Assembly (NCBI GenBank): GCA_001724265.1
Contig: MEDY01000016.1
Location: forward strand, 62,001-126,000
Reading direction: 5' to 3'
Source of the DNA: Rhizaria sp. SCN 62-66
Lineage: Eukaryota
DNA: 64,000 bases
Within the stretch, counting starts at the first letter, position 1. The number at the start of each line of letters is the position of its first letter. Below, in pieces: positions 1 to 64,000 of the stretch. A model generated the notes under the pieces. It was given only the letters and a program-made list of their open reading frames with translations, searched no databases and was not told where the DNA came from. The position numbers were made by a program, and so were the translations under genes.

Positions 1-1459
1 CTGGGCCGTGTCGGCCGTGACGTCGCGTGCCTTCCGCGCGCCGCCGCTGCGCACCGCGCAGTACTCGCACTCCTACAACAGTGAGTCTGCTGCGAATTCT
101 AGCAGCACTGGCCCGACAGTCGAGCGCAAGGACATTGAGGTGGGCGAGTCGTTCAAGGGCGAGCACCTGGCGATGATTCCCCTCATCGACATGCTCAACC
201 ACTCGCTGGAGCCTAACGCCTACTCGAGCTTCCTGCGCGTCGACCCCACCGCTCCTGGCAAGGGCGGCTACCACGTCGCCCTGCGCGCGCTGCGTCCCAT
301 CAAGGCCGGCGAGGAGCTCACGCTCAACTACTTCCGCCCGCGCACGAACTCCGGCGACGCCGGCGCTGTGGCCGCGGCGGCGCGCGCGGAGCTGGAGGAC
401 CGCGCCGCCACTGGTTACACCACCGCCGCGAGCACAGCTTCTGGCTCTGCGGCGGCAAGCAAGAGCGTGCGCCCGCTGTCGTGGGGCGCCAACACGGCCG
501 CTGCGGCGGTGGCGCAGGCGCTGGTGGACCCGGCGGACCTGTGGGGCGTGGCCTACACAGAGTCCTCGGACGAGACGCTGGTCAACTTCGGCTTCGTTCC
601 GGCGTGGAACGCGCGCGACCGCTTCCGCCTCGAGCTCAACGTCGACCTGCTCAAGACGGCCATGACCATGGCGCTCGACTTGGGCGCCGACACGGAGAAG
701 CTCGCCGCCGCCGCCGCGGCCGCCGCGACGGGCAGCGGCGACGGGACCGTGCCCGTGACCACGGCGCTGCAAGCGCAGGGGCTGGTGGCGGCCGCGCCGG
801 GCGAGTTCACGGACCGCCAGCGCGAGCTCATCGACACCGTGCTGTCGCTGCCCGCGAGCATGCCGCTGTACGTCGGCTGGGGCGGCCCCTCGCCCGCGCT
901 CGCCGCGCTGTGCCGCGTGCTGGCCGCCGGGACTTGCCGCGTTAACGCCGCTGGAGACCGCGAACAGTCGCCGCTGATCGACACCACGCTCGAGTTCGAG
1001 CGCGCGCGGGTCGAGTCCGAGGCGCGCGTCGAGGCCGCCCGCGCGGTGGCTGCGACGGCGCGCAGGGCGGACGATCTGGCGCGCATGCTGTGGGCCACGC
1101 GCGGCCGCATCCTTCCCTCGAGCAGCGCGAGCAGCAATGGAGACGCTGCGGGGAGCGAGATCGAGGCGAGGGACGCGCTGGCGGGCTGGGGCGCGGACCC
1201 GCTCACGGCTGAGAACGAGGCCGGCGCGCGCGCTGTGCTGTACAAGCTGCTGGTGCTGCACACGGCCATGTTCCGCGGCAAGCTGTCGCGCGACGCAGAG
1301 GCTATGGCCAAGGCGGCGGATAAAAAGGACGCTGCGGGGTTCATCGCGCTGCAGGTTGCGCGCGGCAAGAAGCAGATTTTGACGCACGCGCTGATGATGT
1401 TGGCCAGGGACTTGGAGCTGGATGAGAGCGTGCACGCGTGGCACAAGTCTCTTGTGTGA
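1..1459 (+). CDS. SET-domain protein lysine methyltransferase (Rubisco LSMT/SETD3-like), 5'-truncated by window edge
   Basis: Motifs AMIPLIDMLNHS, ALRPIKAGEELTLNY and SDETLVNFGFVP are typical of the LSMT-type SET C-terminal half. The frame is open from the window start and ends in TGA. Confidence 0.8.
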   Translation, partial: WAVSAVTSRAFRAPPLRTAQYSHSYNSESAANSSSTGPTVERKDIEVGESFKGEHLAMIPLIDMLNHSLEPNAYSSFLRVDPTAPGKGGYHVALRALRPIKAGEELTLNYFRPRTNSGDAGAVAAAARAELEDRAATGYTTAASTASGSAAASKSVRPLSWGANTAAAAVAQALVDPADLWGVAYTESSDETLVNFGFVPAWNARDRFRLELNVDLLKTAMTMALDLGADTEKLAAAAAAAATGSGDGTVPVTTALQAQGLVAAAPGEFTDRQRELIDTVLSLPASMPLYVGWGGPSPALAALCRVLAAGTCRVNAAGDREQSPLIDTTLEFERARVESEARVEAARAVAATARRADDLARMLWATRGRILPSSSASSNGDAAGSEIEARDALAGWGADPLTAENEAGARAVLYKLLVLHTAMFRGKLSRDAEAMAKAADKKDAAGFIALQVARGKKQILTHALMMLARDLELDESVHAWHKSLV

Positions 1460-2821
1460 AGACTCATTAATATGTTAAGCTTAATGTGAACATGAGTCTT
1501 TATCGTTGCTGGCTTTCCGCCGGTAACGTTGCTGGTTGTTCTAAAATATGGTCAGGAGGTATATTTATTTACTACGTGTAATAACACGTATCAATAATAC
1601 ATTATTTGGACAAAAGTAATCCTTGAGATACGGAAAGCTTTTGATGATGCAGAGTCATTGACAGATATCGTCTACGTGCCTCTAAGATGGGCTGGGAGAA
1701 CAAAAAGAAAGAACCATGGGATGGGAGTCGAACTAAAGGATGTACAATAAATTTGTTTTGTAAAACAAAAATAAATGTCCACCAGAAATGCAAATCTTCT
1801 TTGTTATTTCGTGCTTTTAGTGAAAAAGTAAATCCCAGCAAAAATGTAATACTTTTATAAGAAGTAAAAATGTTGATGAAAAGTTTGTAGCTCGGAACTT
1901 GAACACATGTTTACTGCTTTAACTTAAAATAAAATAATAAAGATTCTTATTATATCAGAATATTGATTGAATAAGGTGAAAAGAGACAGCACTAAGAGAT
2001 TAAAATCAGAGCATTAGTGGAAAATGAATCTTCACATTTTCACATCGAAGAGTGATCATGACCACCTCAAAAGTACAGTACAAGTAACGCAACATCCAAA
2101 GTGGTACTGTACACCGAGCCTAGTGAACACGCTCACGAAGAAAGCACAGAGCAGCGGTTATGGTTTAATTTACTTTTGTATTTCATGCGGTATACATCCT
2201 CCAAGTCAGAATATCAAAATCGATTCGCACTGTGGGGGGTGTGAAGCCGCCTGTATTTATATCAAAGGCTGTCATACGAAGGGAGCAGAAAACTGTTGGC
2301 GCAGAGGCGCACAACAGCTGCTGTGACTTACGTTGACGCTATAAAGACGCTTATTTAGCGTCTGGGGGTCGGGTGTTTTGTGGATTATTGTTGTGTTTTT
2401 CGGGCTTGAGCTATTGTCAAGTGCAGGTGAAAAATAACGTCACTTCGCGTATTTCATGCGCAGTGTGCAACTGACTTAACAAAGAGACTGTAAAATATGA
2501 TCTCATAAGGAACAAAAAATAAAAAGAAACATATAATAGCTGGGGTGTGACAACAGAACAAAGTGAAACGGTACGAGTCATTGCTACGTTAGCAAAGTAG
2601 AAACTGAGCGAACACGAAATTGATATCACGACTGACTTCAGCATACTACTGCTTAATTCACACTGAGAGAGATACCGCGATTACTCTGCTGCTGTACAAG
2701 AGTTAATTCTAACGCAGAGACATGTTTGCCATTTGCGCAGTCTTATTAGACACTGATCCAGTGTGATTGTAGGTACAATGTCAGCGTACTTGCATTTTGC
2801 GTGTATGGGCTGACTGGCAGC

Positions 2822-3758
2822 TTAGTAGCTGTTCGGCCGGCCAGCGCCGATGGTGCGAGTGAACCAGTCCATGCCCTCAAACACGCCCTCGCCGGTGCGC
2901 GCGGAGCAGCCCTGGACGTACCACTCGCGGCCCTGGATCTTCTGCAGCTCGAGGCGCTGCGTGATCTCGCGCACCGACAGCGCCTGCACCATGTCCTGCT
3001 TGTTGGCCAGCACCAGGAACGGAACACCGCGCAGCTCGTCCTCGGCGAGCAGATGCGCGAGTTCCTCCTTGGCGGCCTTGGAGTCGCGGTCGACGATGGG
3101 GCCCACGAGGCGCTCCTCGTCGGCCGAGTCGAGCACGAAGATGAGGCCGTCGATGTTCTGGAAGTAGTAGCGCCACAGGGGGCGGATGATGTCCTGCGAG
3201 AGCAAAGGAGATGAAAGCAGGAAGAAGCAAAAGAAGATAAAACATTCAAATCAAGAGAAGAAGAAGGGTTTGTGAGGTTTTGAGTGCGCGAGCTTTGATG
3301 ATAAATGTGTGTTGCAAGATTCAACGTCACTAAGGTACGTTCGATAGTTACGTAATGTACCTGACCTCCGACATCCCAGAGCGTGAACTGAATGTTCTTG
3401 TACTTGATGTTCTCGACGTTGAAGCCAATCGTCGGCATCGTGGAGACGACTTCGCCCAGCTGCATGCGAAGGCTGAGAGCGGTCTTGCCAGCGTTGTCGA
3501 GGCCAAGAAGAAGAATCTTGTAGTCTGTTGGGAGGGCAAGGCAGAAAAGAAAAGAGGAAATAGAAGCAAACAGAGCAAATAAGAGAAGAGAATAGAGGAA
3601 AGAGAAGGCCAAAGGCAAGAGTGTGAGTTGAGTGGTGAGGCTTGACAGGAAGCACAGCGAGCGAGTAACAGTAAAAGTTAAACACAACAGTTGTTCGTGA
3701 GAGACGTACTCTTTTGAGCAGTAAGAGAAGCCCAGACGCGGGTGAAGAAGTTGCCCAT
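2822..3758 (-). CDS. Arf/Arl small GTPase, 3 exons (3758-3710, 3524-3361, 3193-2822)
   Basis: Spliced product MGNFFTRVW...GLDNAGKT...PTIGFNVE...[17 protein letters not shown]...NKQD...CSA has the myristoylation Gly2 and G1-G5 motifs. GT-AG introns restore the frame. Stop TAA. Confidence 0.93.
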
Positions 3759-4153: not shown

Positions 4154-4185
4154 TTTAGACAATATATTTAAATATATTGTCTAAA
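4154..4185. repeat. Perfect 32-bp palindrome TTTAGACAATATATTT|AAATATATTGTCTAAA
   Basis: The left 16 nt are the exact reverse complement of the right 16 nt, with no spacer. Confidence 0.9.
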
Positions 4186-4637: not shown

Positions 4638-7600
4638 TTAATATGCTTTGGACGCGCCATGAATCGGCAGGTAAGGCCTGACGGGTCTCTCATCACCGTC
4701 CCACGCCGCCACGCCCCAGAGTGTCACGCTGACCGCCATGGCAGCGCGCGCTTCAACACTCACGCTCTCGAGCCACGACACAGCGATAGCGCTCTCACTC
4801 TCATTCTCACTGGGAGAGCGAGAGGAGCTTGCATCCGCGTCGGTGTTGGCCGCGGGGTCCCACAGAGCGCCGCACATGCTCGTAGCAAGCCTCTTCCCCC
4901 ACTCACCGCACTCGCACTTGTTTTGAGCCGAAGCACCAGTCGCTGCAAGGGCGGGCCGCTCGTGTGCGCGCGGCAGCAGAGCGAGCCCCGTGACCGCGAC
5001 GGCGAGTGGGTCCTCGCGGGCGTCGCCATGGCCGCGCAGCAGCTCGGCCGCCACGGCGCTGCGCAGAGAGCGCGCGGGCAGCGCGGCAATGCAGCGGGAC
5101 AGGCACGACGGACACGACACACGCACAGTCTTGCCGCCGCTAGTATTCCCGTCAGTGATGGTAGAGTCGGAGGCAGGGACTGTGAGGGTGAGCTCGCGCA
5201 CACAGCGCAACGCCATCGAACGCAGTCGGACATCGCCCTCACTGCCGTTCAGTGTCTCACTCTCGCCGCTCCAGTCGGCCTCGAGCCCCGCGGCGGCGAC
5301 GGCGCACAACGCGGCGACGGCGCAGCGGTAGTCGTGCATGGCGCCTGGCAGCCCCTCGATCGCGGTCCGCGTGTGGTCATGGCCGTGGTGCGCGATCAGC
5401 GTGGCGATGAGCGCAAAACGCAGCACCTTAAAGGTGTGTGAGAGGACGACGACGAGGCTGGAGCTCGCGGCCTCGAGCTGGCGCGGCAACGACGCGAGCG
5501 CAGTGAGCGCGCCGGCGGCGTCCAGCGGGGCTGCAGAGCACACAGGCAGCATCGCCGCAGACAAGGCGCTCTTGGCGTCGCTTCCGTCAGCGTCACAGTC
5601 AATCATGGGTTGCTTTTGACTCACGTTTGCGGAGGCGCTTGCAGCAACAGTACAGCGAGGCAACGCAGCCGTGATGCGCTCAGTCAACACAGTCGCGGGC
5701 ACGTGAGCCACCACACTATTCTCGTTCTCGGTCGCGGTAAGCGGGAACAGCATCTTGCCCCATACCAACAAGCCGTGAGCAAGGTCAAGCGGCTTAACAT
5801 CTGCGCTCTCGTCACTAGTCAGCGCAGGAGCAAGCAGGGTAGCAAGAATTGAGACCTCGCTATAGTTGCTACCGTCGGTGTTGGCAGCAGTGCGAACAAT
5901 CTCGGCAAACAGAGGGCTGCGCGCGGCGTTGCGCAGCCAACTGCTGTTAACGTTGCTGCTGCGGTCATCCGCACTAACACGCGCAATAGCCGACAGCGCA
6001 GGCGGGAGCACACCACCGTTCGCGTCCGTGTCGTTGTTGCTGACGGCAAGCGTGAGCGCTTCGGCCGCCGCGCGCACGAGCACGGGCATGAAGCGCCCGA
6101 CCGCGAGCAGCGCCAGCGTAATCGCGCGCGACCGCGAGGACTTGGACAGCGTCGAGAGGTCCGCGACGGTGGCGTAAAGCGAAGGTAGCGGCGGGTCACT
6201 GACGCGGTCCATCACGCCCGTCACAGCCGCCCCAGTCGTCGCATCGGTCGCCGAGCCGTCAGCGCCAGAGTCGGTCGCGGCGGCTGGGGCGATCGCGGTG
6301 GGGTGCGAAGAGAGCGTGCGCGCCCAGGCGCCGCCCGTGGTCCACGAGGCCGCGAGCGCGGGCACCGAGGCCCAAAGGCGGACAGTGCGGCGCAGCGGCA
6401 GACGCAGAGGCGCGCCGGCAACCGGAACCGCGCTCGGAGAAGTTGCGGAAGATTCGGACACGGACACGGGGTAGCCGTACTTCGTTGTGATAGAGTTATT
6501 CGCAGCGTCTGCGGGCAGGAGCGAGTGCCCCGACGTGACCGCGGCGAGCACGGTCAGCGGCGAGGGCGTGATCAAGTCTGCGCTGCCGACACTCACCACA
6601 GTCGCCGTCGCGGTCGCAGTCGCGGCGGCGGTGACGGCGGCCTCGTCGCTCTTGAGCGCCTGCTCGCAGTCGGCGTCGGCGCTGTTGACGAACGAGCGCA
6701 TCGGCCGCGCAAGGTACGCGCGCAGCCACTCAGGCTCACAGGCATCGTCGCCATCAGAGCCAGAGCCAGAGTCCGCGGCGTGTGCGTCGGCGGCGTCTGC
6801 GTCAGCGGCGCTGAGCCCGACGACTGCGACGGCGGCGTCGGCGGCGCCGTCGAGCCACTGCAGCAGCGCGTGCGCGGCTGTGGACGGCAGCTCGCTGAGG
6901 CGCCCATTGTGCACCAGCGACCGCAGCGTGAGCGCCACCACGGGCCGCTGCGGCGTGCTCACCGTCACGCCACCACAGCTCGCACCAACAGCACCGCCGC
7001 CGGCCTTCGCAGCAGCAGCGGCAGCGGTCGCGGCGGCGATGGTCCCAGCGTAGGTGCCGTCGGCGATGCTGTGCATCGCGGTGGCGATGACAGCGACACG
7101 CGCGCGGTCGAAGTCGCACAGCGCAGGCGGGATCTGGTCCAGCGAGAGGGAGAGGTCGGGCAGCGCAAACGCGCGGTGGCTGTAGCACGACGGCAGGTCG
7201 TCGCCCCATACCGCGGCCGCGGACGACAGCGGCGGCTGCTTAGCCTGAGACGCCGCACTCGTTGCCGAAGCCACAGCCGCAGGAGAAGTTGTGCTGAACT
7301 TGGTGCAGCCCATGGCGCTGTTGGCAAACGTGGCCGAGGTCACGGACTGGGTCGCAATCGCCACCGTGGCGGCGGCCGCGAGGGGCGTCGAGGCCGAGAG
7401 CATCTGCCGGTACTTGTTGAGCACGCCCTCGGACAGCACCTGCCCCAGCACGAGTCCGTCCCAGTTGTTGGCGCGCGCGTTGGGCAGGAACGCGCTGTTG
7501 ACCGCGGCCTCGGCGCTGGCGACCGTGCGCGCCGCGTCGGCGCCCGCGGCCGAGCTGTTGTTGTGCGTGAACACGCCCAGCGCGGCGGCGCCGTGGTGCA

Positions 7601-10473: not shown

Positions 10474-11305
10474 ATGGCTGTCCAGCAAGAGAATTGTTGG
10501 TATTTTTGGAATATTCAGATACACTTGTCTATTTTACTTTAATTATACAACGAGATGCTTTGTCATAGCTCCACATCGCCTCACCTTTTCTTTCCCTGTT
10601 TCCTCTTTGCCTGTTGACTTGTTCCTTTGCCCATCGCGATCGCCTCTATCACTCTGTCACGCGCGCTCTCATTACCATAATCCTACGCCCAGCCCTTCCG
10701 GCATGGTGGAGCCTTTCCGCTTTCCGTCCAAGGTTTTGGGCTGCGACTGCATCATCTGCGAGCGCAAGGGCGTCGACATGGCGACGTACAAGGACCCGAT
10801 CATGCTCTTCGACCTCTACAAGGTCGTCAAGATCGACGACAACGGCGAGGCTGTCGACATGTCCCCCGCGGAGATGCAGCAGTTCGAGGAGAAGTACCCC
10901 AAGCACGCCGAGTGGCTGTCTGAAACGGGCACGGGCGAGCCCGTCAACGTCAAGAAGACGGCTTGGCACAAGGTCTGCGTGCAACTGCTCAAGAACATCC
11001 TCCGCGACAAGGAAGTGAAATACTTCCGCTCGCCCGTCGACACGCGCGCGCTTAACATCCCCGACTATCCGGTGTACATTAAGCACCCGATGGACTTCGG
11101 CACGATTGACCAGCGGCTCAACGCCGACGCGCAGGGCGGTTACGAAAACCCCTACGACTTCATCTCGGACGTCCGCATGGTCTTCCGCAACTGCTACGTG
11201 TTCAACGCGAAGGGGACGCAGATCTGGCGCATCGCCGAACGCATCAGCATGAAGTTTGAGGAGCAACTCATCAACTACGCGTCGCTGCCGCCCTCGATGC
11301 TCTAA
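10474..11305 (+). CDS. Single-bromodomain protein, 2 exons (10474-10499, 10693-11305)
   Basis: Bromodomain motifs FRSPVD, IPDYPVYIKHPMDFGTI and FISDVRMVFRNCYVFN. Exon 1 is inferred from an ATG and a GT...CAG intron that keeps the frame. Stop TAA. Confidence 0.85.
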
Positions 11306-14700: not shown

Positions 14701-15088
14701 CGAAATAAGCATTTAACGTGTCATTGTAATTGATCTAACATTTTTCCTTCAAACTGTGATGTACCGCCAAATTTCTTTTCTTTCTCGCACCAACAAACAG
14801 GTCGGCCCCGTGCTGAGTGACCTCGCTTCGAAGCGCCGCGGCCAGGTCCGCCAGGTCCTCTCCGGCTCCTCCGCCGAGACTGCCAACACCAGCTCCAGCA
14901 GTGGCAGTAGCAGCAACAGCGCGGTGCCCGAGCAGGCCGTGATCCTGGCTGACACGCCGCTGGCGGAGCTGCGTGACTACGCAACCGCGCTGCGCTCGGT
15001 CACCGCCGGCTCGGGCTCGTTCGCGATGGAGTTTGCAGAGTTCAGGCCCGTGCCGCAACACGTCGTTACTGCGCTGCAGAAGAACTGA
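11737..15088 (+). CDS. GFM2: Mitochondrial elongation factor G2 / ribosome-releasing factor 2, 3 exons (11737-12458, 12645-14622, 14801-15088)
   Basis: [58 protein letters not shown] and [15 protein letters not shown]. Arg/Ala-rich presequence. Stop TGA. Confidence 0.85.
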
Positions 15089-45397: not shown

Positions 45398-46283
45398 ATG
45401 GCCTACGCCCAACACCAACACCAACATCAGCAACACGCGCCTCAGCCTATGTATGCTTCATCTATCACTTCAGTCAACCACCACCAGGCTGCATACATCG
45501 CCCCACAGCCTGCCGCTCCGCCCCCGCAGCACATGCAGTACTACCAACATCCCCACGCCCACCAACACCAGCATCCACACGCGCACGTGCCTATGCACGG
45601 ACAATATCAGGTCCCCGTCGGCGTTCACCCGCCCCAGGGCGTCGCCGTGCCTGTCGGCGCGCTCGGCAGCGTTGTGCCCGGCGTTCTCGGCGTGCCGGGC
45701 GCGGCCAACGCCAGCTCGCCTTCTGCGCTGTACGCCGCGCTCCAGGCGCAGCAGGACCACCTGAACCACCTGCTGCAGTACCACCAGGCCCGCAAGCGCG
45801 CGCTCCAGCTCGCGCAGCTCGCGCACACCAATAACGCCCCCGCCCCCGCGACCAACGGCACCGTCAGCACGCCCTCGAGCTCCCAGGGCGGCACCCCGCC
45901 GCAGCAGTACCAGCAGCACCAGCAGCAGCACCAGCAGCAGCAGATGGGCGACGCGCCCTTCGCGCCCACGGCCATGATGCAGTCGCTGTCCCTCGGAGAC
46001 CCGCATTCGGGCGCGTACACCGGCGGCGCCGCCTACAACGGCGCCGGCGCCGCGGCCGCCGCGGGCGGGGCGATGACCGCCGCGGAGCAAGAGGCGCTGC
46101 AGCTGCAGCACCTGCAGCAGCAGCTTCTGCATTCGCAGCAGCAGCTCGCAGCGTTCCAGGCCCAGCAGCAGCAGCAGCAGCAGCAGCGACAGGGCACGCC
46201 GCCGTCGCAGCCGTCGTCGACGCAGTCGTCGCCGCTTCAGCAGCACCAGCAACAAGCTGCGGGCGACCCGGCCAAGCACGCGC

Positions 46284-46370
<87 letters not shown>

Positions 46371-47608: not shown

Positions 47609-48725
47609 CGGAGCGCGCGGATGTTCCCGCCGCGACGCTCGCCACTACCCCCGCCATACTCGTGCGCTCGCGTCACACGTACCTCGACGCACACACGTCC
47701 GTACGCACCCCTCTGTACACTCACTTCTGATTCACCGATGTGCACGCCCAGGCGCGCTGCCCCGCCGCACGCACCCTCTCGTGGACGCCCATTCGTTCCC
47801 TACACACATAACTTAACACACAACTCTCCCGTACCACACGACAACACCGCACAACCACACGCATTCGTTCCCCTTAACTTACTTATCGGCCTCTTCTTTG
47901 CTTGTGTAGCCGGATCCATTTCACCCTGGGTTACATCGGTGTGATCTCTGTTCACTGTGATGAAACTCAGCAGGTGTTGTCTTTATATCCGCGAATAACA
48001 AGCATCAAAGGCGTTGCCACATCAAAGCTACAATTTTACTTTTATTTTTGCATTGTTTACACGGGTTCGCTCACACCCGCGCTGGACAGTGTATCACGTA
48101 CAAAATTCACTTTCACGAACGCTATCACAAACGCGCTCTTGCTGCTGTTACGCAGTCACTCACTCCCATGCGTGCCCTTTGACGCCCACCCCCGCGCACG
48201 CACCGATTCTTGGACTTTGTTTTCGCTCGCTCGCGCCGGTCTCCCGATATGTGCACCACACATGTTCTGTCGACACCAGGCTCGCGGTCGCCCAACAACA
48301 CCGATCCAACATGAGCGGTCTTTACGTTTGCGGGTGTTTCACGTGAGTTTGACAAGTGCTGCGTTTCGTACTCGTTGAGTTTTGTTTCTCAGCTCTTTCT
48401 GTGTTTTTTTTTTCATTAAAAATATTCTCCTTTTGTCTCTTGTTTCAGGCTATGACATATGATCCTTGTAATTCAGTCTCAGTTCAGAAATGCCTGTTAA
48501 TCCGTGCGCGCCGTTGGGCGCGCGTGCTCGATTCGCACATTTCGTGGTCACGATTCCGAAAAATCCAAACCATATCCCCACCCCTCCCCACTGCGTGTTT
48601 ATTTGATTACAATCGTCATTTTTGTCTTGTCCAAAACACATCGTATTGTCTCACTTTTCTTGTACTAGTCTAGATCTATCACAAGCAGTATAGAACAACC
48701 TCCGTAAAAATAATTCCATCATAGT

Positions 48726-49687: not shown

Positions 49688-50704
49688 TCACTGAGCGCCG
49701 GCACCGGGCGGCTGCTCGCCACCCGGCGCGCCCGCCTGCCCGAAGGAGATGCTGTAGGAGCCAGTGGCTGGATCCTGCACGGCCTTGAACTGGTCCAGAC
49801 TCATCCCGAACTTGCCCAGGATCGTGTTGCCGAAGCCCTTAAGCTTGTCAATCATCTCGTCCTTCTGCTTCTCGAACCGGGCCGCGACCTCCTTCTCCAG
49901 CGCGGGGAGGCGCTTGGCCAGCGCTGTCTCCTTAGGGTCCAGCTCCACCGCGCGCTTGTAGTCCTCCACGGCCTCCGACAGCCGGTCCAGCTTCTCGTAC
50001 GCGCGGCCGCGGCGCACGATGGCCTTGACATAGTCGGCGTCGAGGTGCAGACATTGTGAGCACTCATACACGACGTCCTCCCACTGCTCCAGCATGAAGT
50101 GCGCGGCCGCCTTGTTGCTGTGGTACACCAGTCGCGCCGGGACGTCATCGTCCGGCACCGTCAGCAGCGCCTCGGCGTAGCAGTCCAGCGCCGACTCGTA
50201 GTCGCCCTTGCCAAAGTGCTTGTTGCCGCGCTCCTTGGCTTCCAACGCGCGCGCCGCGTCCTTGGGCAGGTTGTCAAAATAGTCGTCGTCGTAGAACGTC
50301 GCGGCAGGGTCCTCGCCCTCCGCCGCAGCCGTAGTGGCAGCGGCAGCGGGCGCGGAAGAGGCAGCGGCTTCGTCGTCGTCGGAGGCGCCGGCGTGGGGCA
50401 CGGTGCTGTCGTTGGTGCTGCCTTGCTCGCCGCCTTGTTCTCCGCCTTGTTCGCCGTCGGTTTCGGTGGCGCCGCCGAAGGGGCCGTCGCCGTGTTCGTC
50501 TTCGTCCTCGTCCTCGTCCTCGTTCTCGTCCGCGTTATCGTCACCGTTATGGCCGTCCGCGCTCTTGGTAGTAGAGCAGGAGTTGGCGTTGAGCGCGGTA
50601 GAGTCGGAGTCGCCGCCGAGAGAAAGAGAGCTCACACCCGCGGTGACAGTGTCGGCAGTGGCCTGAGCAATCTCGTCGTCTTCGATAATCTCGATCGTCG
50701 CCAT
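49688..50704 (-). CDS. TTC1: Tetratricopeptide repeat protein 1-like co-chaperone
   Basis: Acidic N-terminus, three TPRs (KERGNKHFGKGDYESA...) and the characteristic C-terminus EMIDKLKGFGNTILGKFGMSLDQF...GSYSISF. Stop TGA. Confidence 0.88.
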   Translation of the reverse strand: MATIEIIEDDEIAQATADTVTAGVSSLSLGGDSDSTALNANSCSTTKSADGHNGDDNADENEDEDEDEDEHGDGPFGGATETDGEQGGEQGGEQGSTNDSTVPHAGASDDDEAAASSAPAAAATTAAAEGEDPAATFYDDDYFDNLPKDAARALEAKERGNKHFGKGDYESALDCYAEALLTVPDDDVPARLVYHSNKAAAHFMLEQWEDVVYECSQCLHLDADYVKAIVRRGRAYEKLDRLSEAVEDYKRAVELDPKETALAKRLPALEKEVAARFEKQKDEMIDKLKGFGNTILGKFGMSLDQFKAVQDPATGSYSISFGQAGAPGGEQPPGAGAQ

Positions 50705-51148: not shown

Positions 51149-53711
51149 ATGTCCAGCGGCCGCGGACTCGTTGTCCACAACCACCTCGCGATTCTCAACG
51201 CGAACAAGACCATGAGCAAGCGCACGCACAACCTCTACTGCGCACCCAAGGCCCACTCGAGCGAAGGCGGGCTCATCCTCACCGTCGGCGACGGAGATTT
51301 CAGCTTTTCGCTCTCGCTCACCATGGAGCTTGAGCTGCGCAACCGCACGACGGGCATGTCCCGCCTGGTCGCGACGTCGTACGATCCGCTGGCGCAGGTC
51401 CTGGCCAAGTACCCCGCATCGGCAGTCACACTCGACAGCCTTAAGAGCCAGGGCGTGTGTCGCCTGCACAACGTTGACGCCACGCAGCTCATCCCTTCGC
51501 TCGACAAGTCCCTCGCCATCTCAATTGCGCAGAAGCGCCCCGGCTTCACCCCGCCGCCCTCGTCCACCTTCACCCGCGCATTCTCCCGCATCATCTTTAA
51601 CTACCCCGCCGTCGCCAGCGCGACGGCCATGCACGGCGCCGAGGCCAAAATCCTCCTCACAGACTTCTTCCGCGCCGCGCAGCCTGCGCTGGCGCCACCT
51701 ACCGTGCCCTCAGTCTCGGCGGCCGCGCGCGCGGCGGGGCTCCCTGCTGACGCCGCGGGGCTGCCCGAGCTGCCGCTGTGCGAGACCGCGGCGATCAACG
51801 CCAGCAAGCAGTCGTACAACGCTATCCCCAGCGTGCCCGCCACGAACAGCAGCAGCAGCAGCGCCAACGCCAAGGGCGGCAACGGCAAGCAGCAATCTCA
51901 GCAGCAGCCGGCCGCGCTTGCGGCGGGCAGCGCGGTGGACACGGACGCTGTCTTCGGCGGGCAGGTGCACGTCACCCTGCGCACCACCAGCGCCTACGCG
52001 GCGTGGGAGGTGGTCGAGGTCGCGCAGTCCACGGGGCTGCGGCTGCTCAAGACGGCCGCTTTCAACGCCATGCACTACCCCGGCTACAGCGAGCAGCGCA
52101 CCGCGGGCTCGGACTTCATGCGCCACACAGCCGGCACCGTCGAGCACAACAGCGGCAGCCGCAAGCACGGCGGCGGCGGCGGCGGCGCGGCGGGGGCCGG
52201 CGGCGACGGCGGGCTCATCTACGTGTTCGTGCGCGCGCCCGCGCTGTGGGTGGCCGAGGGCGTGGGCGCGGCAAGGGCCGGCGCGCGCGGCGCCGCGGCG
52301 GGCGCCGTCGTGACCCGCAAGAAGGTCAAGACGGTGCTCGTGCGCAAGGCTAGCAGCGACGATGACGACGCCGATGATAGCGACGCGGACGACGCGGACA
52401 ATGAGGTTGCTGACGATGAGAAGAAGGTCAGTAGCAATGCAGATAACGACGACGATGAAATTGTTCAGAGCAGTAAGGTTGCGAAACTTGCGAGTGCTGC
52501 TGCTGCGCAAGATGATGACGATGATGACTACGATTTTGACTCGGCGTTCGCCAACGCGCCCGCGCCCGCTGCCATCGCCGCTGCATCGATCCGCAAACCC
52601 ACGGTCGACGCGGACTCCGAGTCAGACTCTGACCCCGACACTGCTGCTGAGGCCGCCGCTGCTGCCGCTGCCGCTGCTGCCGAGGCCGCGGCTGAGGCCG
52701 AGCGTCGCCGCGCCGCCGCCGCCGCTGCTGCTGCGGACGCTGTCGATCAGCACGGCATTCCGGCGTCCATCTCTGCGCTGCTGCGCAAGATGACGTCGCT
52801 GCCGTCGCACTCGCGCATGTCCCGCAACGCCGGCGCGGAGGCCAAGGCCGCCGCGGCCGCAAAGTGCCCCGCGCAAGTCGCTGCGCTCGTGGCCGCGCGC
52901 GTCAAGGCGTACGGCAGCAACAAGCCCGTGCCGGAGACGCTCGCCACCGTCCCCGTTGCAGGCGGCAGCAGCCCTGCGGGCGCCAAGGGCAAGAAGGGCG
53001 ACGCCGCTGCCGCTGCGACCGGCGCCCCCGGCTCCGGTGCCGCTGCTGCGGCCGCTGCCGCCGCCACCGCCGCTGCTGCGGTCGCCGCGAGCGCCTCGCC
53101 CCTCGACGCCCGCGCGGCCAACGCGGCGGCCCTGGCCGCGGCGGCCGCCGCCAAGGCCGCCGCGGGGCCGATCGTGCGCAAGACCGAGGTGGCGCGGCGC
53201 GCGATGCCGCTGGCGTTCGACGTCGACGAAGACGCGCTGGCCACGCGCGCGGGCCGCATCGCCGGCGTCGCCGAGACCGTCAACGTAGGCGACATCATGC
53301 GCGAGAGCTTCGAGGCCGAGTTTAAGGCGCAGCAGGCGCGCTCAGAGGCCGCAGCGGCCAAGGAGAAGCTCCGGCTCGAGACGAAGGCGGCCAAGCTGGC
53401 CAGGTACGTTAGACAACGAAACGACGTAAAAATAACAAAAAAAGATATATCTCACTGAAAATGCTTAATGACATCGATATTTTTGTTAGTGCAAACATAT
53501 GTTGTATTTTATGGTATATGTCTTTGTTGTACTCGATGAATATCTCATATTGCGTTTATACTGTTCCTTTCTTCTTTCGCTTCACCTCGCGTTGCACAGG
53601 TGGGCTGCGGGCGTCGGCGCGAGGCCTGTGGGGCCCGTCGGTCCCGGTGGCGCTGTCGAGGCGCGCATCGACCAGGTGAGCGACCTCTTCGACGTCCGCC
53701 GGTCCAAGTAA
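51149..53711 (+). CDS. BMT5/DUF2431-like rRNA uridine-N3 methyltransferase domain protein with low-complexity tail, 2 exons (51149-53403, 53600-53711)
   Basis: ILTVGDGDFSFSLSL, LVATSYD, VDAT, FSRIIFNYP, VHVTL and YPGY. GTACGT...CAG intron. Stop TAA. Confidence 0.8.
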
Positions 53712-54354: not shown

Positions 54355-57061
54355 TTACCAGCGGGCGCCCTGGCTGCCGCCACGGTAGCCACCGCTGCCG
54401 CCACCATTGCGGTCGTTGCCGCCACGGAAGCCACCGTTGCTGTTGTTGCCGTAGCCGCCGCTGTTGCCGCCATAGCCGCCCTGGTTGCCACCACGGTTGC
54501 CACCGTAGCCGCCGGCGTTGCCGCCGCGGTTGCCACCGTAGCCGCCCTGGTTGCCGCCACGGTAGCCGCCGCTGCCGCCACTGTTGCCGCCGCGGTAGCC
54601 GCCGCTGCCGCCGCGGCTGCCGCCCTGGCCGCCGAAGCCGGCGTTGGCGCGGCGCAGGAAGAGCTCGGCGGGGAGACGCTCGAGGATGCGGACCTCGCCC
54701 AGCCCGGCGACCGTGGCGGCGCCCGCCTGGCCGTTGGCCTCGATGAAGTCGTGGAGCATGGGCACGACCGAGTCGGGGATGTCGAGCAGCAGGAGCGCCG
54801 AGGTGGACGTGGACGCACTCGCCGTCACGGGTGCGCCGATAGCCGCAGTGAGCTGGCGCGCCGCCTCGAAGGCCGACACGCGCGGGTCCGCGACGGAGAT
54901 CGTCGTCATGTTAGGCGCGGAGGCGAGCAGCGAGAAGGACGTGCCGGCGCTGGGCTGCGCGCGCTCGATGAGCATCTCCACCACCGAGGTGAGGACGTCC
55001 TTGTAGTTGTTGTCGTGCTTGTCCAGCAGACGCGTCGCGATGTCCATGGCCGCGGCCGTGGTGCTTGAGAGCGGGTCGGCCGCGCCCTCCTGCTCCGTCA
55101 CGCGGCGCACGCGCGCCAAGGTGCCGGGCACGGCCGCGTTCACGTTCTGGAGAAAGGGTTGCGAAAAAGAAACAATGAAAAGACAGCATGCAAAAAATGA
55201 GATATTAAGATGATAAAAAGATATAAAGACGTAGCCAAAGAAAACACCACACAAGTGATCAAGTATACACAGTAATTATTTGTTCCAATGTACCTGGAAG
55301 ACAGTGCGGAGGGTGGCGGCGTCGATCTCGCTGGCCGTGAGGTCGCTTGGCACGACCTGCGAGAAGCGCACGCCGGTGGCGGCCGAGATGGAGGCCATCT
55401 CGGCGCGCGCGCGCTGGTCGTAGAGCATGACGCACGTGCCCTTCTTGCCGGCGCGGCCAGTGCGGCCGGAGCGGTGGACGTAGCTTTCGATCTCCTTGGG
55501 GACGCCGCACTGGACGACGAGGTCGACGTCGGGGATGTCGATGCCGCGCGCCGCCACGTCGGTCGCAACCAACACCTTGAGCTGACCCTGGCGGAAGCGC
55601 TGGAGAATCGTCTCGCGCGTCGACTGCGAGATGTCGCCGTGCAGCGCGGCGCAAAGCTGCTGGCCGCGGCGGCCGTTCATGGACGAGCTGGTGCTGCCGC
55701 TGGTGGCGTTGAGGCGCGTCTCGAGGTCCGACGCGAAGGCCTTGGTGTCGGAGAAGACGATGGTGCGGCCGGTGTGCGAGTAGGCCTTGATGAGGGAGCG
55801 GATGATGACGGGCACGTCGTCGACGCTGGCGGGCATCGCGGCCGCCTTGTGCGTGATGAGCGTGGGCGTCTCGCCCGCGGCCGCCGACGCCGCGCAGTCG
55901 ATGAAGACCGAGTCGCGCGTGTACTTCTGCGAGATGCGGTTGATCCACGACGGCACGGTGGCCGAGAAGAGGATCGTCTGGCGGTCGCTGGGCGTGTTGG
56001 AGAGGATGCGCTCGATGTCCTCCGCGAAGCCAACGCGGAGCATCTCGTCAGCCTCGTCGAGCACGACGTGGCGCGTCGCGGCCAGGTTGAGCACGCCGCG
56101 CTCGATGTGGTCCTTGAGGCGGCCGGGGGTCGCAATCACGACATCGACGCCGCGCGACAGCGCGCGCACCTGACCGTCGTAGGGCGTGCCGCCGTACACG
56201 GTGCACACAGAGAGGTTGGGGTCCAGGCGCTCGATCTCGCGGGCGACCTGGTTAGCGAGCTCGCGGGTGGGCTCCAGGATGAGGATGGGCGCCGTGTTCG
56301 GGGCCGGGCGCGGGTAGTTGGCCTGCACCAGGGCGTCGATCAGCGGGAGACAGAAGGCGAGCGTCTTGCCCGTACCGGTCTTGGACTTGCCGATGACGTC
56401 CTTGCCCTCCTTGATGGGGCGCAGCACCTCGGCCTGTGTTACGATTCGTTTAGAAAAACAAATAAAGGTGCGAATTATGTGAGATCAGCTATCATTTGGA
56501 TATAAATGCACACGTATGTAGGGAAGTAGTCGCTAGATACTAATTCTTCTGGTTTGATATTACAGAGCGCCGCTCTTACGGATACACCACCCAGAATGCG
56601 CATATATGAGTTGGGAGAGTGCATGAGCATACCTGAATGGGGAAGAGCTGCTCAATGCCAAACGACTTCTGAAGCGTGTTCACGATGGACTTGGACAGAC
56701 CGAAGTTGGTCACGGCCAGCGCCTCGTTCTTCTCGATCGTGTCGGCCACGGCGGCGTTGGCGCTGGTGCCGGCGGACGCGCCCGCAGCGGCGGCCTCGGC
56801 GGAGAACGCGGCGGCGGGGGCGGCGACGACAGGGCTCACAGCGGGGGCCACGGTTACGGCGATGGGCTTGAAGGCAAGCGAGGGATGCGCGGCGGTGAAG
56901 AGCGAGGCCACGGGAAGCGCGGCGACGACGGAGGGGCAGGCGGCCGCGGCAGTGCTGGAGCCGGACGTTGCGGCGGCCGCGAGGGGGCCGAGACGGGCGG
57001 CCGTCTGAGCGACGGAGCGCGTCACCTGACGGGAAACCGCAAGCTTCGCAAGCGACTTCAT
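54355..57061 (-). CDS. DEAD-box RNA helicase (DDX21/RH9-like) with RGG tail and probable mitochondrial presequence, 3 exons (57061-56633, 56433-55294, 55146-54355)
   Basis: Q-motif LFPIQ, KTGTGKT, PTRELA, TPGR, DEAD, SAT, ARGID and HRSGRTGRAG. C-terminal GGYRGGN repeats. Stop TAA. Confidence 0.93.
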
Positions 57062-57499
57062 GGCTGTGTGCAAAGAGAAGAGTGAGTTACACACGGATAG
57101 AGTGGAAGGAAAAGGAGGGCGAACGGTGAGAGACGTTGGGGCGAGGCTGCACGTCGAGAAGTGGGCTGGAGGTCGGAGAAACAAGGGGCTGGAAAGAGAG
57201 TGATACAAGCTGTTTTCACAACACAAAAAAAGATTTACATAATATCCGCCAAAATAACTCCAGCGTTTTCTTATCTCGACTCCTGACGGGGCATTGTTCG
57301 CTTATCCTGCAGCGAAATGCGTGGTCTTCGGTCTTCAAGGTTGCTCGCCCACGGTCCTTGCGGCTTGACTTTGATCTGGGACATTTTTGGCATTCGAGAA
57401 GGTATATCACGCTCTAGTCGGTGTATTATTTCATTTGACTAAGTAAGCCGGCTGTGCAAAGCCTTGAAGCACTTGAATATATCACTCCGATATATGCCG

Positions 57500-59114
57500 T
57501 CAGACGATTTCAAGCTCATGCATCAACTGAGTGAAGTCTGTCATCAAGTCCTCCGAAGCAGCACCCTTGCTTTCCCACCCCTTGCGAGTCTAAACAAAAT
57601 GAATTCAAATTATTTTCCACAAATTATGTTATTTTGTTAGAATATACATGTTATATAGCGGTACTGCACATATTATAGATTGTTGTTACGGTAAGATTCG
57701 ATGCAGAGAGAAACACGTACCTTGTCGCAACCCCGGTGCAGTAGCACTCCGTGGCCCCCAAAGCGCTTGATGCCAAGATAGTCGGCGTCAACGCTGTCGC
57801 CGACGTGCAACACCTCGTGCTAAAATACACGAGCAATATCACATTGATATGAGGCAAGATGATGATTGAAGAGAGCAGTTACATCCGAGGTGAGTGACGT
57901 ACACCATGAATAGCACGAATACCAGCTAAAAGAACATCATCACACCAAGAAGATAAAACAAGAAGATCATTAGGTAAGCAGTATATCACCTAAAATTCGC
58001 TTAACGTACCGGCTTGATGTCGTCCGCGTCAGGAACGCGCTGTTTGAGCGCGTTTGTGCCCTCCTGCAGCGCGACGCGGAAGATCTCCGGCGCAGGCTTA
58101 GCGGCGCAGGCGAGCTTCGACAGCGTCGTGAAGTCGATGTAGGGCGCAAAGCCCAGGGCGGGGATAACTGCGTCGCGGTAGCGCTCGTCTGGAAAGCGGG
58201 AGTCGAGGGGGAGTGTACAGGGAGGCAATGATGTTCAACTACATTGTGAGACCAGGTAAGTTAGATATGTTTAAGTTGCCACTATTGACTTCTCCGGTTT
58301 CTATTCATTCATAACGAAGAGTAATGACAATTTAAAAGTTATAGCAATGATATGGCATACCTGCGTTGCTTACAACACCTAAGGGCACGACAGCGGATGG
58401 GCTTGGCTTCAGAAAGCCGCTGGCAAGCTGTGTGACCGAGCTGAGCTGTTGCTGCTGGTGCTGCTGATGCTCTTGTTGATGTTGTGCTTTGAGCCACATG
58501 GCAAAGTGCAGCGCGTCGTCGTGCCTCTGATAGGCCTCGTCTGTGTCGAAGAGTTTGTATAGCTTGCTACTGAGCTCCGCTGCCTGCTCTTCAGTCACGC
58601 CTCTAACCTCCACAAGAGAGGTCTCACTGCCACTGATCCCGTTGTTCTGACTGAGGCTAGGGCTGCGAGCATCTGTCTGCTGCAGCGCCGCTGAGGAGTC
58701 ATCAAGGTGCGCGAGAGTGCGGCGCACGCAGAGATCCCACCAGTCGGGTGAAGAGAGCGTTTCGCCGCCGAAGCACGGGTACTCCTTGATGGTGCGGCGG
58801 TACGCCTGCATAAATGCTGTAGAGTACGGACACAGTTGAATGATAAGTACGCAGTAAAAACGTTACAAAAAGTAGAGTGTGTGGTTAGCCATGCACAAAA
58901 TCTCAGCAAATCAAGTTGAAGCAATGATTTGTATGCTCAAATAATCGATTTGTGGGTTCGTACCAGTGTTCATGGCGTCAGGCCCTTTGTGAGTGATGCC
59001 GAGTTCCTCCGCTGCATTGCAGTAGATCTGACCGATAGAGTCCTTAAACTGCATTACCGTGCCGGTAAAATCAACTGTCACAAGGCGAATGGGAGCACCA
59101 CGGAAGCGCAACAT
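57500..59114 (-). CDS. HAD-superfamily hydrolase, HDHD3-like, 5 exons (59114-58964, 58816-58361, 58188-58010, 57819-57721, 57589-57500)
   Basis: Motif I VTVDFTGT, motif II LGVVSNAD, motif III KPAPEIF, motif IV LHVGDSVDAD. Four GT-AG introns keep the frame. Stop TGA. Confidence 0.85.
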
Positions 59115-59991: not shown

Positions 59992-62737
59992 TTACGCGTC
60001 CAGCTCGGCCATCTTGGCAAGGTAGCGGCCCAGCGCCCAGATGGGGAAGATGGAGCGGTACGCAGTGTATGTAATCATGCAGTTGCCGTTGAACACGCCC
60101 GAGATGCCCTCCTGCGGCCAGTCGCCCGTGGGGAGCTGGCGCGACAGAATCTGGCGCGCGGCCTCGTCCAGTGGCGTGCGGTCGACCTTGTGGTAGTCGG
60201 CAGCCAGCAGCGCGAGCAGCGCCCACGCCGTGTTGATCACCATCGACACAGGCTTGTTCGCAGCCGCCGCGCCGTCGCCGTCGGCGGCGATGAGGTTCTT
60301 GTCGTAGCTGTGCGAGTATTCCTTGGTGACGCAAGATTGGAAGCTCTCGCCCCAGCCGCCGTCCTCGTTGCGCTTCGAGAGCAAGAACGCGACGCCCTTG
60401 CGGATGGCCTCGCTCGACTGGTAGGTGTACCCCGCCGACATGAGCCCCTCGACGCCAAACCAGGCGCCGTAGGTGAAACACACGCCCCAGGACCCGACCC
60501 AGGCGCCGTCGGCGCGCTGAATGCGCTGGATAAACTTGACGCCGTCCTCGATAGACTTGTTGACCTCCTTGGTGCGGTGGTCGGGGAAGTCGTGGCGGAA
60601 CTTGCACAGCACCTGCACGCACGCGGAGGAGCACTCGACGTAGCTGTAGTCCACCATGATGCCACCGAAGACCTCGGAAGGATTCAATGCCTCGATCCAA
60701 GCAGGGCCGCGCATGTTCTCGTAAGTGGCCCAGCCACCATCCTGGTAAAGCGTTAAGAAAACAAAAAAAGCGATGTGAGCGAAGAGAAAATTGTTAAAGA
60801 GATTTGCCTACATAACGCTAAAAACAAACAAATAAACCAACCCATAAAATGTAAATATTTGGTGATACCGGGCGATTTTGTTGCCATACAGCGGTGTCAC
60901 GTACCTGGTAGTTCTGGAGAGTGAGCATGACGTTGACGGCCTGGAACTGGCGCTCCGCGGTGACGTACTTGACAGGGGGCGCAATCTTGCTGTCCTTGCC
61001 CGCCGTGGCCGGGTTAGCGATGAGCCCGGTGCGGTGCATCAGCAGGACGGCCTTGAGGCCCTCGGCCGTGCAGTCACTGATGGGCCACCCGTGGTCACGC
61101 GTACTGAACGGCCAGCCGCCCAGCGACTCGTGGCGGAACCACTTCTCGCGGTCCTCGACCTCCTGGACGACCTGCGCGCACTCGACGAAGTCGTACGCCT
61201 TGGTGAGGAACTGCTTAAGCGGGGACGCGAGCAGACGCGCGGTGAGGTCGAGCTCAACGGGGCGCCCCGTGGCCTTCTTGCGGCGCGCGACGCCGTCGTC
61301 GAGCTCAAGAAAAGCCTGCACCGTGAAGGCCGTGTCCCAGAGCTGGGAGCCGTTGTAGCCCTGGACCTTGATGCCGTCCTCGGCGACCCAGAGGTAGTCT
61401 GCGATGCGCGACTGGTGGAGACGGAACTGGAGCGAGTCCTTGCCGTAGCCGTGGAAGCACGAGAGCATGTTGATGAACTTGGACACGGGCCCGATGTCGA
61501 CGTAGTTGGTCTGCGTGTCCTCGGCCGTGATGTAGTCGAGGATGAACTTGAGCGCGCGCGGCCGCAAGAGCCACTTGGGGAAGTAATCCTCGTACAAGTT
61601 CATGAAGCCGTTGGCGAGCTTGAGCATCAGCGCCTGGTCCGTGTAGCGGTCCGTCGGCGACACGTGGTTGCGCGTGGCGCGGAAGTCGATGGTGTCGTAA
61701 GGCTTAGGGTAGATCTCGCCACGGATGGCCTCGATCAGCGGGTCGACGGGCACGGTGAACTTGACGCCCGAGATGTAGGCCATGGGCAGATAGACCATGC
61801 GACAGTGGCACCAGAAACGGCCGGGGTGGAACGGAAGGAACTTAGGCATGAGCCACATCTCGGGGAAGATGGCATTAGAGCCATCCCAGGGCATGAGGTT
61901 GAGCACGTTGAGCCAGAACTTGCCCCACGAAGGGGTGCCCTGGGCGCCGCCGTGGGCGATGATCCACTCCCGGCAGCGGACCAGAGGCGGGAGGTCGGCC
62001 GCGCAGCCCAGCAGACGCAGCGAGACGTAGTTGAGCACGGTGCCGAACATCGTCGCCGCGGACTCGATGTGGAGGCCGTAGCCGCCGTCGGGACGCTGGT
62101 GCGAGAGCAGGTACTTGATCATCTCGAGGCGGGTCTGCGCTGGCAGGTGGGTGCCCGTGGCGTAGCACGTGAAGATCGCGCCGGGCATCAGGAACATGGG
62201 GCCGCCGTAGTCGCTGGGGATGTGTCCGTCCTCGGCCTGGACATGCTTGAAGTACTCGGCGCCCTGCTCGCCGGCCTCCTCGACAAGACGGAGGAACTCC
62301 TCGCGCGACAGCGTCTCCATGTCGATGTCCTTCTCGCCGCCGTCCTCGGTGCGGACCGTCTTGACCGTCGCCGCGTTGGCCTTGGCGGCCGTCGAAGAGC
62401 CGGGGCGGTAGAGCTCGGCCGGGATGGCCTGCTTGCGGTAGATGTCGTCGCCCGTGTTGGGGTTGGTGAGCATCGTGGCTTGGCGCGCCACTTCGTCGAT
62501 CTGCGCGGCAGTGATCTCCTCCTTGTGGTCGTAGACGGAGTTGATTTTGGAGCCGTCAAAGACGCCGCCGGGGAGCATGTCGGTGTAGACGACGCCCTCG
62601 GACATGAAGGGGAGACCGTTGTGGCGCACGCCAGCGGGCGTGGTGGTTTGCTTGACGACGGACTCGGCCACCGTCGACTTGTCGGGGCTGAAGTACTGCC
62701 AGATCTGGCGACCGGCCTCAGACGTGAGACTCCACAT
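59992..62737 (-). CDS. CAS1: Oxidosqualene cyclase, cycloartenol synthase type, 2 exons (62737-60905, 60741-59992)
   Basis: DYGGPMF, FWCHCRMVYLPM, QGYNGSQLWD, DHGWPISDCTAE and QW repeats (QRPDGGYG, QRADGAW, QLPTGDW). Stop TAA. Confidence 0.93.
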
Positions 62738-63212
62738 CTGTTTCTTTAAGAGGCGAAAAACACGGGGAGTAAAACAGAATCAGCACATGTAAGCGTTGAG
62801 AGGGCGAATCCTGCAGGCAAGTAGAGGTGGAGTGGCGGTGACTGCAGATGACAACAAACGCAGCCAAACGCAATGAAGTAATAAAGATGCAAGATGAAGA
62901 GCGATGACTGACAAATTATAAAGAAATAACCAAGAAGTCTTGTTTTATCTAGGAAAACTAGAATTGGATCATTCATCGATGCAGAACACCCTTAATATAT
63001 GTTGCAAAGTTGACGATTGAATCTCACGACGATCACCGACCGCCCTGGGACTGGCGTGGGACGACGGGCGCTACAGCGCAGACTGGCGCCACAGCCACCG
63101 AGTCGACTGAGAGGTGGCCATCGCAGTCAGCCGGACCCCAAAGTTGATCGATCGACACACTCCTTGTGCACGGTGGTTTGATCGTCAAAGACGATAAAAA
63201 TTGCTGCACGCG

Positions 63213-63866
63213 ATGGATTCTGACAAGTATTTAACGGCACTTTTGTCGTGGTGCGCCAAAAACGGATTTGACCCCTGTACCACGTGGGGTCTTCGCCCTC
63301 ACATCTTCCACTCGGGACTCCGCGGTGTTCAAGTCTGCCACGCACCCGCTCTCCCTCGGAAGTTGCTCAAAGTGAACAAAAACAAGAATGCAGATACTTG
63401 CCTTGATGGGCTAGCTTGCGATGAGGCTGACACTACCTCAGCTACATCTTGTTCCGAGTCAAGCGATGGTGTTAAGGAGACCATGACAACTCTGTGCAAT
63501 GCCCCGCGACCGCAGTCACTGCTGCGCGTGCCCCACAACCTCGTCATCACGGCCCCGCTTGCACTGGCGTCGAGTCCCTGCGTCGGCGCGCTAGCCCGCC
63601 TTGCCGCCTGCACCGGCAACCCTCTCTCAGAGACGGAGGTGCTTGCGTTGTTTCTGATTGAGCAACGCCGCCTTCTCACCACGATGCGAGCTCTGGCACT
63701 ACAGCAGCAACATCAGCTCTCAGAGGCTGCGGAACGTGACTGTGAGTCGGCGGCTCTTGCTATTGCATCGCCCGCTAACTGGCTGCCATACGTGGCGACT
63801 GTGCCAGAGACCTACGACACCACGATGTTTTGGGGGGACGCAGACTTGGCCAAGCTCGGCCTCAGC
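63213..63866 (+). CDS. SET-domain (LSMT/SETD3-like) protein, first exon; the rest lies beyond the window
   Basis: LLSWCAKNG, GLRGV, LLRVPHNLVIT, LALFLIEQR and WLPYVATVPETYDTTMFW. GTACGT donor at 63867. Confidence 0.7.
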
Positions 63867-64000
63867 GTACGTGTTACAAACGCATCAAAGTTTTGCTTAA
63901 TCAAATTACCAAGTTCAGGGCGCTTATTCTTGCATTTTACAAGTCTTCACAGTTAATATATGCGTATAGCTCTATGTTTCAAGTGAGTCTATTGCATCTG

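Follow-up and report, generated by a model that had tools for sequence, protein, structure and literature searches.

The 64,000-nucleotide stretch of contig MEDY01000016.1 analyzed here (positions 62,001 to 126,000; hereafter the window) contains two genes, one coding for a protein kinase and the other for a lipoate/octanoyl protein ligase-like protein, each of which carries a single in-frame TAG. We consider it fairly probable that UAG is decoded in this organism as a sense codon, most likely for glutamine, with UAA and UGA terminating translation. Such a code, proposed in an earlier note on this DNA, is the simplest account of the data because two TAG codons are embedded in coding sequence, no other lesions accompany them, and none of 20 gene ends is a TAG. 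In-frame TAA or TGA codons are absent as well; the residues aligned with the two TAGs differ, and both alignment columns are variable.

For every stop triplet on both strands of the window (648 TAG, 820 TAA and 1,704 TGA; 3,172 in total), we scored whether the flanks on either side look coding in the frame of that triplet. Only the kinase and the ligase TAGs lay within coding sequence on the sense strand. This was the case for no TAA, and the one TGA that passed, at 13088 on the minus strand, was the antisense shadow of an exon of the EF-G gene. Same-frame stops situated in AT-rich introns, the flanking exons of which carry the missing Pfam domains, are listed in Table 1. In the 39 sense-strand exon segments used for codon counts (13,956 codons), TAG occurred twice, CAG 504 times and CAA 44 times. 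The zero counts of TAA and TGA in this set arise by construction, and therefore the scan of all triplets serves as the real control. The earlier claim that no gene model requires an in-frame TAA or TGA was confirmed by this unbiased scan, and the gene models could be built without a frameshift or any further in-frame stop.

The kinase TAG is located in the helix preceding the catalytic loop, where the translation aligns without gaps with 14 relatives. The Pkinase (Pfam) match spans the TAG in a single stretch (model positions 4-263 of 263), in agreement with the earlier description of an in-frame TAG in an otherwise intact kinase, and the catalytic motifs are preserved in the translation (the Lys of AIK, VAIK-type; HRDLKPEN; DFG; APE). 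In the 180 codons 3' of the TAG, the GC content at third positions (GC3) is 0.95, and the codon score is -3.61 in frame, compared with -4.75 and -5.04 off frame. The sole relative with readable DNA was L001, a 1,576-base contig piece from the relative P0015, with 80% nucleotide identity; over 167 of the codons downstream of the TAG, the synonymous divergence (dS) was 0.67, the nonsynonymous divergence (dN) 0.13 and dN/dS 0.195. An intron that would remove the TAG was rejected: the nearest upstream GT gives an intron of 28 bases that is out of frame and deletes residues kept in all relatives.

The kinase TAG was found unchanged in contigs from two other studies, i.e., X2 record 4 (1,286 bases, covering 46636-47863) and X4 record 11 (824 bases, covering 46767-47590), at a depth of 5-6 and with no alternative letter reported at 47063. 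The kinase TAG is a real base, not an assembly artefact, and for this site the confirmation in DNA to which the earlier note had looked was thus obtained from both contigs. An assembly or sequencing error, with true codons such as CAG, GAG or similar, is excluded for the kinase by these records; the ligase TAG also ends an open reading frame (ORF) of 101 residues, P0003, on a separate 2,542-base contig, and for the pair of sites we regard such an error as extremely improbable. The N-terminal region of the kinase (45608-46690, +) is very long and rich in Gln, His and Pro, with more than 30 consecutive Gln residues at one place, and the contigs of other runs break, with spurious joints, at the Gln-rich region.

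The ligase gene was modeled with three exons on the minus strand (Table 1), and its TAG falls in frame within this model, as the earlier note had claimed. The 42 codons between the TAG and the TGA have a GC content of 0.75 and GC3 of 0.83; they score -3.52 in frame but only -4.73 and -4.51 in the other two frames (delta +0.99). The in-frame value lies at the 52nd percentile among 423 true coding windows, and the composition falls to 0.49 past the TGA. A search of 1.84 billion protein representatives revealed P0135, a 136-residue ORF with 50% identity, which aligns over query residues 17-135 across the TAG (E 1.3e-22). The 42 residues past the TAG alone match P0135 with E 3e-5, and P0135 together with nine further eukaryote-type homologs aligns through the C-terminal segment beyond the TAG. 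Judging from the coding score of the 42 codons and the alignment with P0135, the TAG interrupts conserved ligase coding sequence, and the assumption of the earlier note that the gene runs on to its TGA is upheld by the same data.

The possibility that the ligase TAG is the true stop of this gene was ruled out by the eukaryote-type homologs extending past it and by the coding signal of the 42 codons. The bacterial-type ligase homologs (232-234 residues) terminate close to the position of the TAG, and the match to a hidden Markov model built from 10 homologs, most of them bacterial-type, did not extend past it. A search with exon 3 among longer proteins gave no match, and the only named ligase match was from Ochromonas danica, with 57% identity over 47 residues, too little to place the organism. 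Matches in the ESM Atlas pointed to broad taxa only.

The ends of 20 genes in the window were established, 11 with TAA, 9 with TGA and none with TAG. The probability of finding no TAG among 20 ends is 0.0115 if TAG makes up 20% of stops and 0.0032 if it makes up 25%; among all stop triplets in the window, TAG accounts for 20.4% (648 of 3,172). Past the terminators, the in-frame codon score is at most -4.5 and the GC content drops to 0.28-0.52, but stays at 0.65 past the kinase TAA. In 18 of the 20 cases, a purine follows the stop codon. The earlier tally of 21 ends (11 TAA, 10 TGA and no TAG) was correct in its TAA count and in the lack of TAG, whereas the total had to be lowered to 20 and the TGA count to 9; its probability of about 0.009 for none in 21, calculated for a TAG share of 20%, becomes the above 0.0115, and the assumed share itself matches that of the window triplets. 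Two TGA triplets were rejected as gene ends. TGA 34995, considered as the end of the exon encoding RSP3, lies within the intron 34946-35116, and TGA 53456, considered as the end of the BMT5-like methyltransferase gene, is intronic as well (intron 53404-53599), the true end being TAA 53709.

Table 1. Coordinates of the in-frame TAG codons, the genes carrying them, gene ends and splice signals in the window.
Feature	Position	Strand	Remarks
In-frame TAG, protein kinase	47063-47065	+	9 residues before His of HRDLKPEN
Kinase coding region	45608-47608	+	Segment score 289; N-terminal part poly-Gln-rich; catalytic domain from ~46691; TAA 47606-47608
In-frame TAG, lipoate/octanoyl protein ligase-like gene	15720-15722	-	Codon 266 of 308
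Ligase exon 1	16524-16879	-	From ATG 16879; LplA-B_cat; 5' splice site GTACGT at 16523
Ligase exon 2	16190-16343	-	KKVGGNAQ motif; 5' splice site GTACGT at 16189
Ligase exon 3	15591-16007	-	Includes terminator TGA 15591-15593; acceptor CAG ends 16008
42 coding codons between ligase TAG and TGA	15594-15719	-	Homologous to family C-terminus
Same-frame stops in AT-rich introns	TAG 12574, 25417, 30428, 60818; TAA 55276		Flanking exons carry missing Pfam domains
TGA, SET-domain gene	1457-1459	+	
TAA, Arf-family GTPase	2822-2824	-	
TAA, large SpoU-methylase-domain gene	4638-4640	-	
TAA, bromodomain gene	11303-11305	+	
TGA, mitochondrial-type EF-G	15086-15088	+	EFG_C in last exon
TGA, ankyrin-repeat gene	18520-18522	+	Last 55 codons score weakly
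TAA, Nup93/Nic96	18776-18778	-	
TGA, small Snapin/Pallidin-like gene	22562-22564	-	
TGA, LepA/GUF1	26350-26352	+	LepA_C 1-107 of 107
TGA, PIG-M mannosyltransferase	26709-26711	-	Tail scores weakly
TAA, glycine-cleavage T protein	29955-29957	-	GCV_T_C in last exon
TAA, ribosomal protein L4 family (mitochondrial type)	31919-31921	-	
TAA, RSP3-PDZ gene	41937-41939	+	
TGA, WD40 gene	42382-42384	-	
TGA, TPR gene	49688-49690	-	
TAA, BMT5-like methyltransferase	53709-53711	+	After intron 53404-53599
TAA, DEAD-box helicase	54355-54357	-	
TAA, oxidosqualene cyclase	59992-59994	-	
GTACGT 5' splice sites	12459, 34946, 53404	+	
GTACGT 5' splice sites	60904, 58009, 32716, 22927, 16523, 16189	-	

The same observations may be read under the standard code, both TAGs being recent, fixed nonsense mutations that inactivated a kinase paralogue and deprived the ligase of 42 residues, with the TAG-free gene ends due to chance or bias. 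The extreme rarity of in-frame TAG (2 in 13,956 codons) agrees with such a history, and the populations sampled in three studies are near-clonal, which would allow a neutral or slightly deleterious mutation to be fixed in all of them. Kinases form a large, redundant family (1,471 matches at E <= 1e-10), and the ligase cut at TAG would retain 95 residues after the HTSFLW motif, where the bacterial-type homologs of 232-234 residues have about 86. TAG-poor termination is reported for standard-code protists in PMC5304391, and, with dS at 0.67, the dN/dS of 0.195 is compatible with a very recent loss. However, two of 20 genes would then bear a premature stop with no other sign of decay, neither a frameshift nor a second stop, and with undiminished codon bias past the TAGs (GC3 of 0.95 in the kinase and 0.83 in the ligase). 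Neither lesion is a TAA, a TGA or an indel, and the ligase would have lost a C-terminal segment kept by ten homologs. The joint probability of this combination with the lack of TAG among 20 gene ends was put, as a rough estimate reached by inference and not computed, at about 1e-4 or less. Two nonsense mutations under the standard code are, in our opinion, unlikely.

With regard to the amino acid inserted at UAG, Gln occupies the TAG column of the kinase in its two closest relatives, P0015 (79% identity over the domain) and P0016 (63%), and the column over all 14 relatives reads Q5 V4 K3 L1 H1. In the ligase, the closest relative has V at the corresponding position, and the column over 10 homologs reads E5 V1 H1 P1 R1 D1. 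The earlier suggestion that Gln fits both sites is therefore borne out by the closest relatives of the kinase but not by the ligase column, in which V and E are found and Q is not. Gln is nevertheless the favored candidate because CAG is converted into TAG by one transition and is an abundant codon (504 occurrences); probably Gln is inserted, with Glu and other residues as possible alternatives.

The residues found at these columns also bear on the view that the code is standard and that these UAGs alone are recoded, through either editing of the mRNA at TAG or programmed readthrough. A precedent exists in the sexual stage of filamentous ascomycetes, where A-to-I editing is described as converting UAG into UGG (Trp) (PMC4817773, PMC11156358, PMC10776026). 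According to the same reports, this restorative editing acts exactly on UAG in intact genes, and the first case concerned a kinase-like gene, PUK1. In the window, Trp is absent from both TAG columns among the aligned relatives (14 for the kinase and 10 for the ligase), and the presence of the gene for flagellar RSP3 argues that the host is no filamentous ascomycete. The fungal system is reported to prefer hairpin loops (PMC11156358), whereas no hairpin was predicted at either TAG (z of -0.15 and -0.83). As for readthrough, the nature of the base that follows the stop codon is relevant. A C at the +4 position after UAG creates a leaky context, and C does follow the kinase TAG; however, the two sites share no downstream motif (TAG-CAC versus TAG-GTG). 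Moreover, recoding of single sites alone would leave the lack of TAG among 20 gene ends unexplained. We regard site-specific recoding as quite improbable, and as less likely than the two nonsense mutations.

Several observations weigh against the decoding of UAG as sense. Only two sites were found, and TAG is approximately 250-fold rarer than CAG. Codon usage, as deduced from the counts, would make most nonsense mutations TAG, and the fact that both lesions are TAG discriminates little. The aligned residues differ between the kinase and the ligase sites, and both columns are variable. All but one of the transcripts of Guttulinopsis vulgaris are reported to end in UAA (PMC5304391), and the existence of standard-code protists with scarce TAG stops weakens the argument from the 20 gene ends. 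The three data sets carrying the kinase TAG are near-identical, with no differences over 1.2 kb, and therefore they attest to the base itself and not to its maintenance by selection. Neither TAG is situated within any RNA contig: the polyA-RNA contigs of run X8 only flank the kinase TAG (46716-46991 and 47350-47672), and the contigs of run X5 also lie off it. The covered part of L001 contains no TAG and its kinase ends with TAA, but this coverage begins past the TAG column and represents one relative. No confirmed tRNA was found in the window; the single call made by ARAGORN, a tRNA-Asp of 92 bases at 38692-38783 (-) inside the PDZ-domain ORF described below, is probably a false positive, as Rfam detected no tRNA in any part of the window. 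No eRF1 gene was detected by Pfam within the 64 kb.

The search for further contigs brought little to this question. With P0015 as the query, the kinase relatives among metagenome contigs comprised L001 and the distant kinases L002-L028. L002-L013 are free of in-frame stops, but they derive from other organisms whose GC contents differ, and L015 and L026 contain introns; these sequences were uninformative. No match was obtained among metagenome contigs with the RSP3 query, among genome contigs with Nup93 and P0016, or among viral contigs with P0016.

If UAG is a sense codon in this organism, it would not act as an effective stop, and the ribosome would insert an amino acid, most likely glutamine. 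The decoder would be a tRNA with the CUA anticodon derived from tRNA-Gln(CUG), and eRF1 would be changed in such a way that UAA and UGA carry out all termination. We infer each of these steps, i.e., the decoding of UAG, the identity of Gln, the suppressor tRNA and the altered eRF1. The rarity of UAG (2 in 13,956 codons) would fit either a reassignment of recent date or a codon that is close to being unassigned. A more specific scenario, which we put forward only tentatively and hold to be somewhat less than an even chance, is that of a previously unrecognized lineage of aerobic, GC-rich, flagellated wastewater protists that has only recently begun to reassign UAG alone, and in which UAG has gone from the terminators and reappears as a sense codon, probably for Gln, about once in 7,000 codons.

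The remaining content of the window characterizes the host. GC-rich exons, with third-position GC of approximately 0.85-0.9, alternate with short AT-rich introns, and about 20 genes were recognized by Pfam. They encode a SET-domain protein, an Arf GTPase, a SpoU-type methylase, a bromodomain protein, mitochondrial-type EF-G, the lipoate/octanoyl ligase-like protein, an ankyrin protein, Nup93, LepA/GUF1, PIG-M, the glycine-cleavage T protein, a ribosomal protein of the L4 family, RSP3 with a large PDZ protein, a WD40 protein, the CaMK-like kinase, a TPR protein, a BMT5-like methyltransferase, a DEAD-box helicase and an oxidosqualene cyclase. The earlier portrait of a GC-rich, aerobic flagellate agrees with this composition and with the Pfam assignments, which include mitochondrial-type genes and flagellar RSP3. 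The public runs in which the sequence of the window is present are bioreactor, wastewater and activated-sludge metagenomes from several studies, and its source is therefore an uncultured protist.

The 5' splice sites are strikingly uniform, nine of them, on both strands, reading exactly GTACGT (Table 1). This hexamer in combination with short AT-rich introns makes a signature that could serve to bin the contigs of the organism. The RSP3 exon is spliced in phase to an ORF of 2,270 codons with seven PDZ domains via an intron of 171 bases (34946-35116, +) with the canonical ends GTACGT...CATAG, and the predicted product of the joined gene (33813-41939, +) is a single RSP3-PDZ fusion protein. In the PDZ ORF, the coding signal begins at 35118, upstream of its first ATG (at about 35286). 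In the BMT5-like methyltransferase gene (+), the last intron is followed by a final exon of 36 codons. The DEAD-box helicase gene (54355-58213, -) has apparent upstream exons at 56639-57064 and 58013-58213, the latter followed by the GTACGT at 58009, and its product has a Gly/Arg-rich C-terminal tail.

When the oxidosqualene cyclase (59992-62779, -) is aligned with human lanosterol synthase, Tyr, His and Ile correspond to T381, C449 and V453 of the human enzyme. This pattern is taken to mark cycloartenol synthases, and in this sense the residues agree with the cycloartenol type ascribed to the host in the earlier note. Within the TPR gene, the stretch 49740-49899 (-) is matched at approximately 90% identity by a polyA-RNA contig of run X8, and the 10 placed differences are all spaced by multiples of three, which puts them at a single codon position. 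The match points to expression of a close relative or a paralogue in activated sludge.

Few UAG-only nuclear codes are listed in PMC11687900, namely those of a rhizarian, Iotanema, Scotinosphaera and some ciliates, and such codes bear on the question of why UAA and UAG usually change jointly. The code proposed here, if real, would constitute an independent case in an aerobic, GC-rich and non-ciliate-looking organism in which UAG is very rare, and it would show the first steps of a stop-to-sense change. It would also offer a natural test of the 'codon capture' versus 'ambiguous intermediate' routes outside ciliates. A practical consequence concerns annotation. Gene callers applying the standard code split or truncate the genes of this organism, as illustrated by the ligase entry cut at TAG in the protein collection (P0003), and therefore eukaryotic metagenome-assembled genomes (MAGs) of this organism from wastewater would be mis-annotated.

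The literature searches brought up no report of a variant code for a wastewater protist fitting this description, and the comparison was made with known systems. The presence of in-frame TAGs in intact genes, one of them kinase-like, resembles restorative editing in Fusarium and Neurospora, but the fungal process is stage-specific, yields Trp and prefers hairpin loops, and none of these features was seen in the window. Among ciliates, Protocruzia tuzeti, Hartmannula sinica and Trochilia petrani are described as reading UAG alone as Gln, whereas phyllopharyngean MAGs from TARA are described as reading UAG as Leu with a tRNA-Sup(CUA), suppressor genes having been found in two MAGs; in the green alga Scotinosphaera, UAG is given as Ser (PMC11687900). 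The window shares with the UAG-only ciliates the putative use of UAG as sense and the retention of UAA, and some of those cases also come from metagenome-assembled genomes. Those organisms are ciliates or a green alga; the window, for its part, shows flagellar RSP3, GC-rich exons and short AT-rich introns.

In the uncultured sainouroid rhizarian exLh, UAG is reported to encode Leu, with 384 UAGs in 71 genes at conserved Leu positions, and the terminators are reported to be exclusively UAA (56) and UGA (15) (PMC5304391). The window would resemble exLh in that UAG is reassigned alone and gene ends are only TAA and TGA. It differs in the rarity of UAG and in the aligned residues, Leu being found in one of 14 kinase relatives and in none of 10 ligase homologs. 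The closest parallel is provided by Iotanema spirale (Fornicata), for which PMC5304391 describes UAG as a scarce Gln codon with UAA and UGA as stops, based on transcriptome-wide sites, a likelihood test and a T32G change in eRF1. If the code proposed here is real, it would belong with Iotanema-type codes, as a UAG-only sense change already known in kind: in both, UAG alone is sense, UAA and UGA are kept and Gln is favored, here from two sites only. Unlike the anaerobic metamonad Iotanema, the host of the window is GC-rich and encodes proteins of mitochondrial translation, of the glycine cleavage system and of lipoylation.

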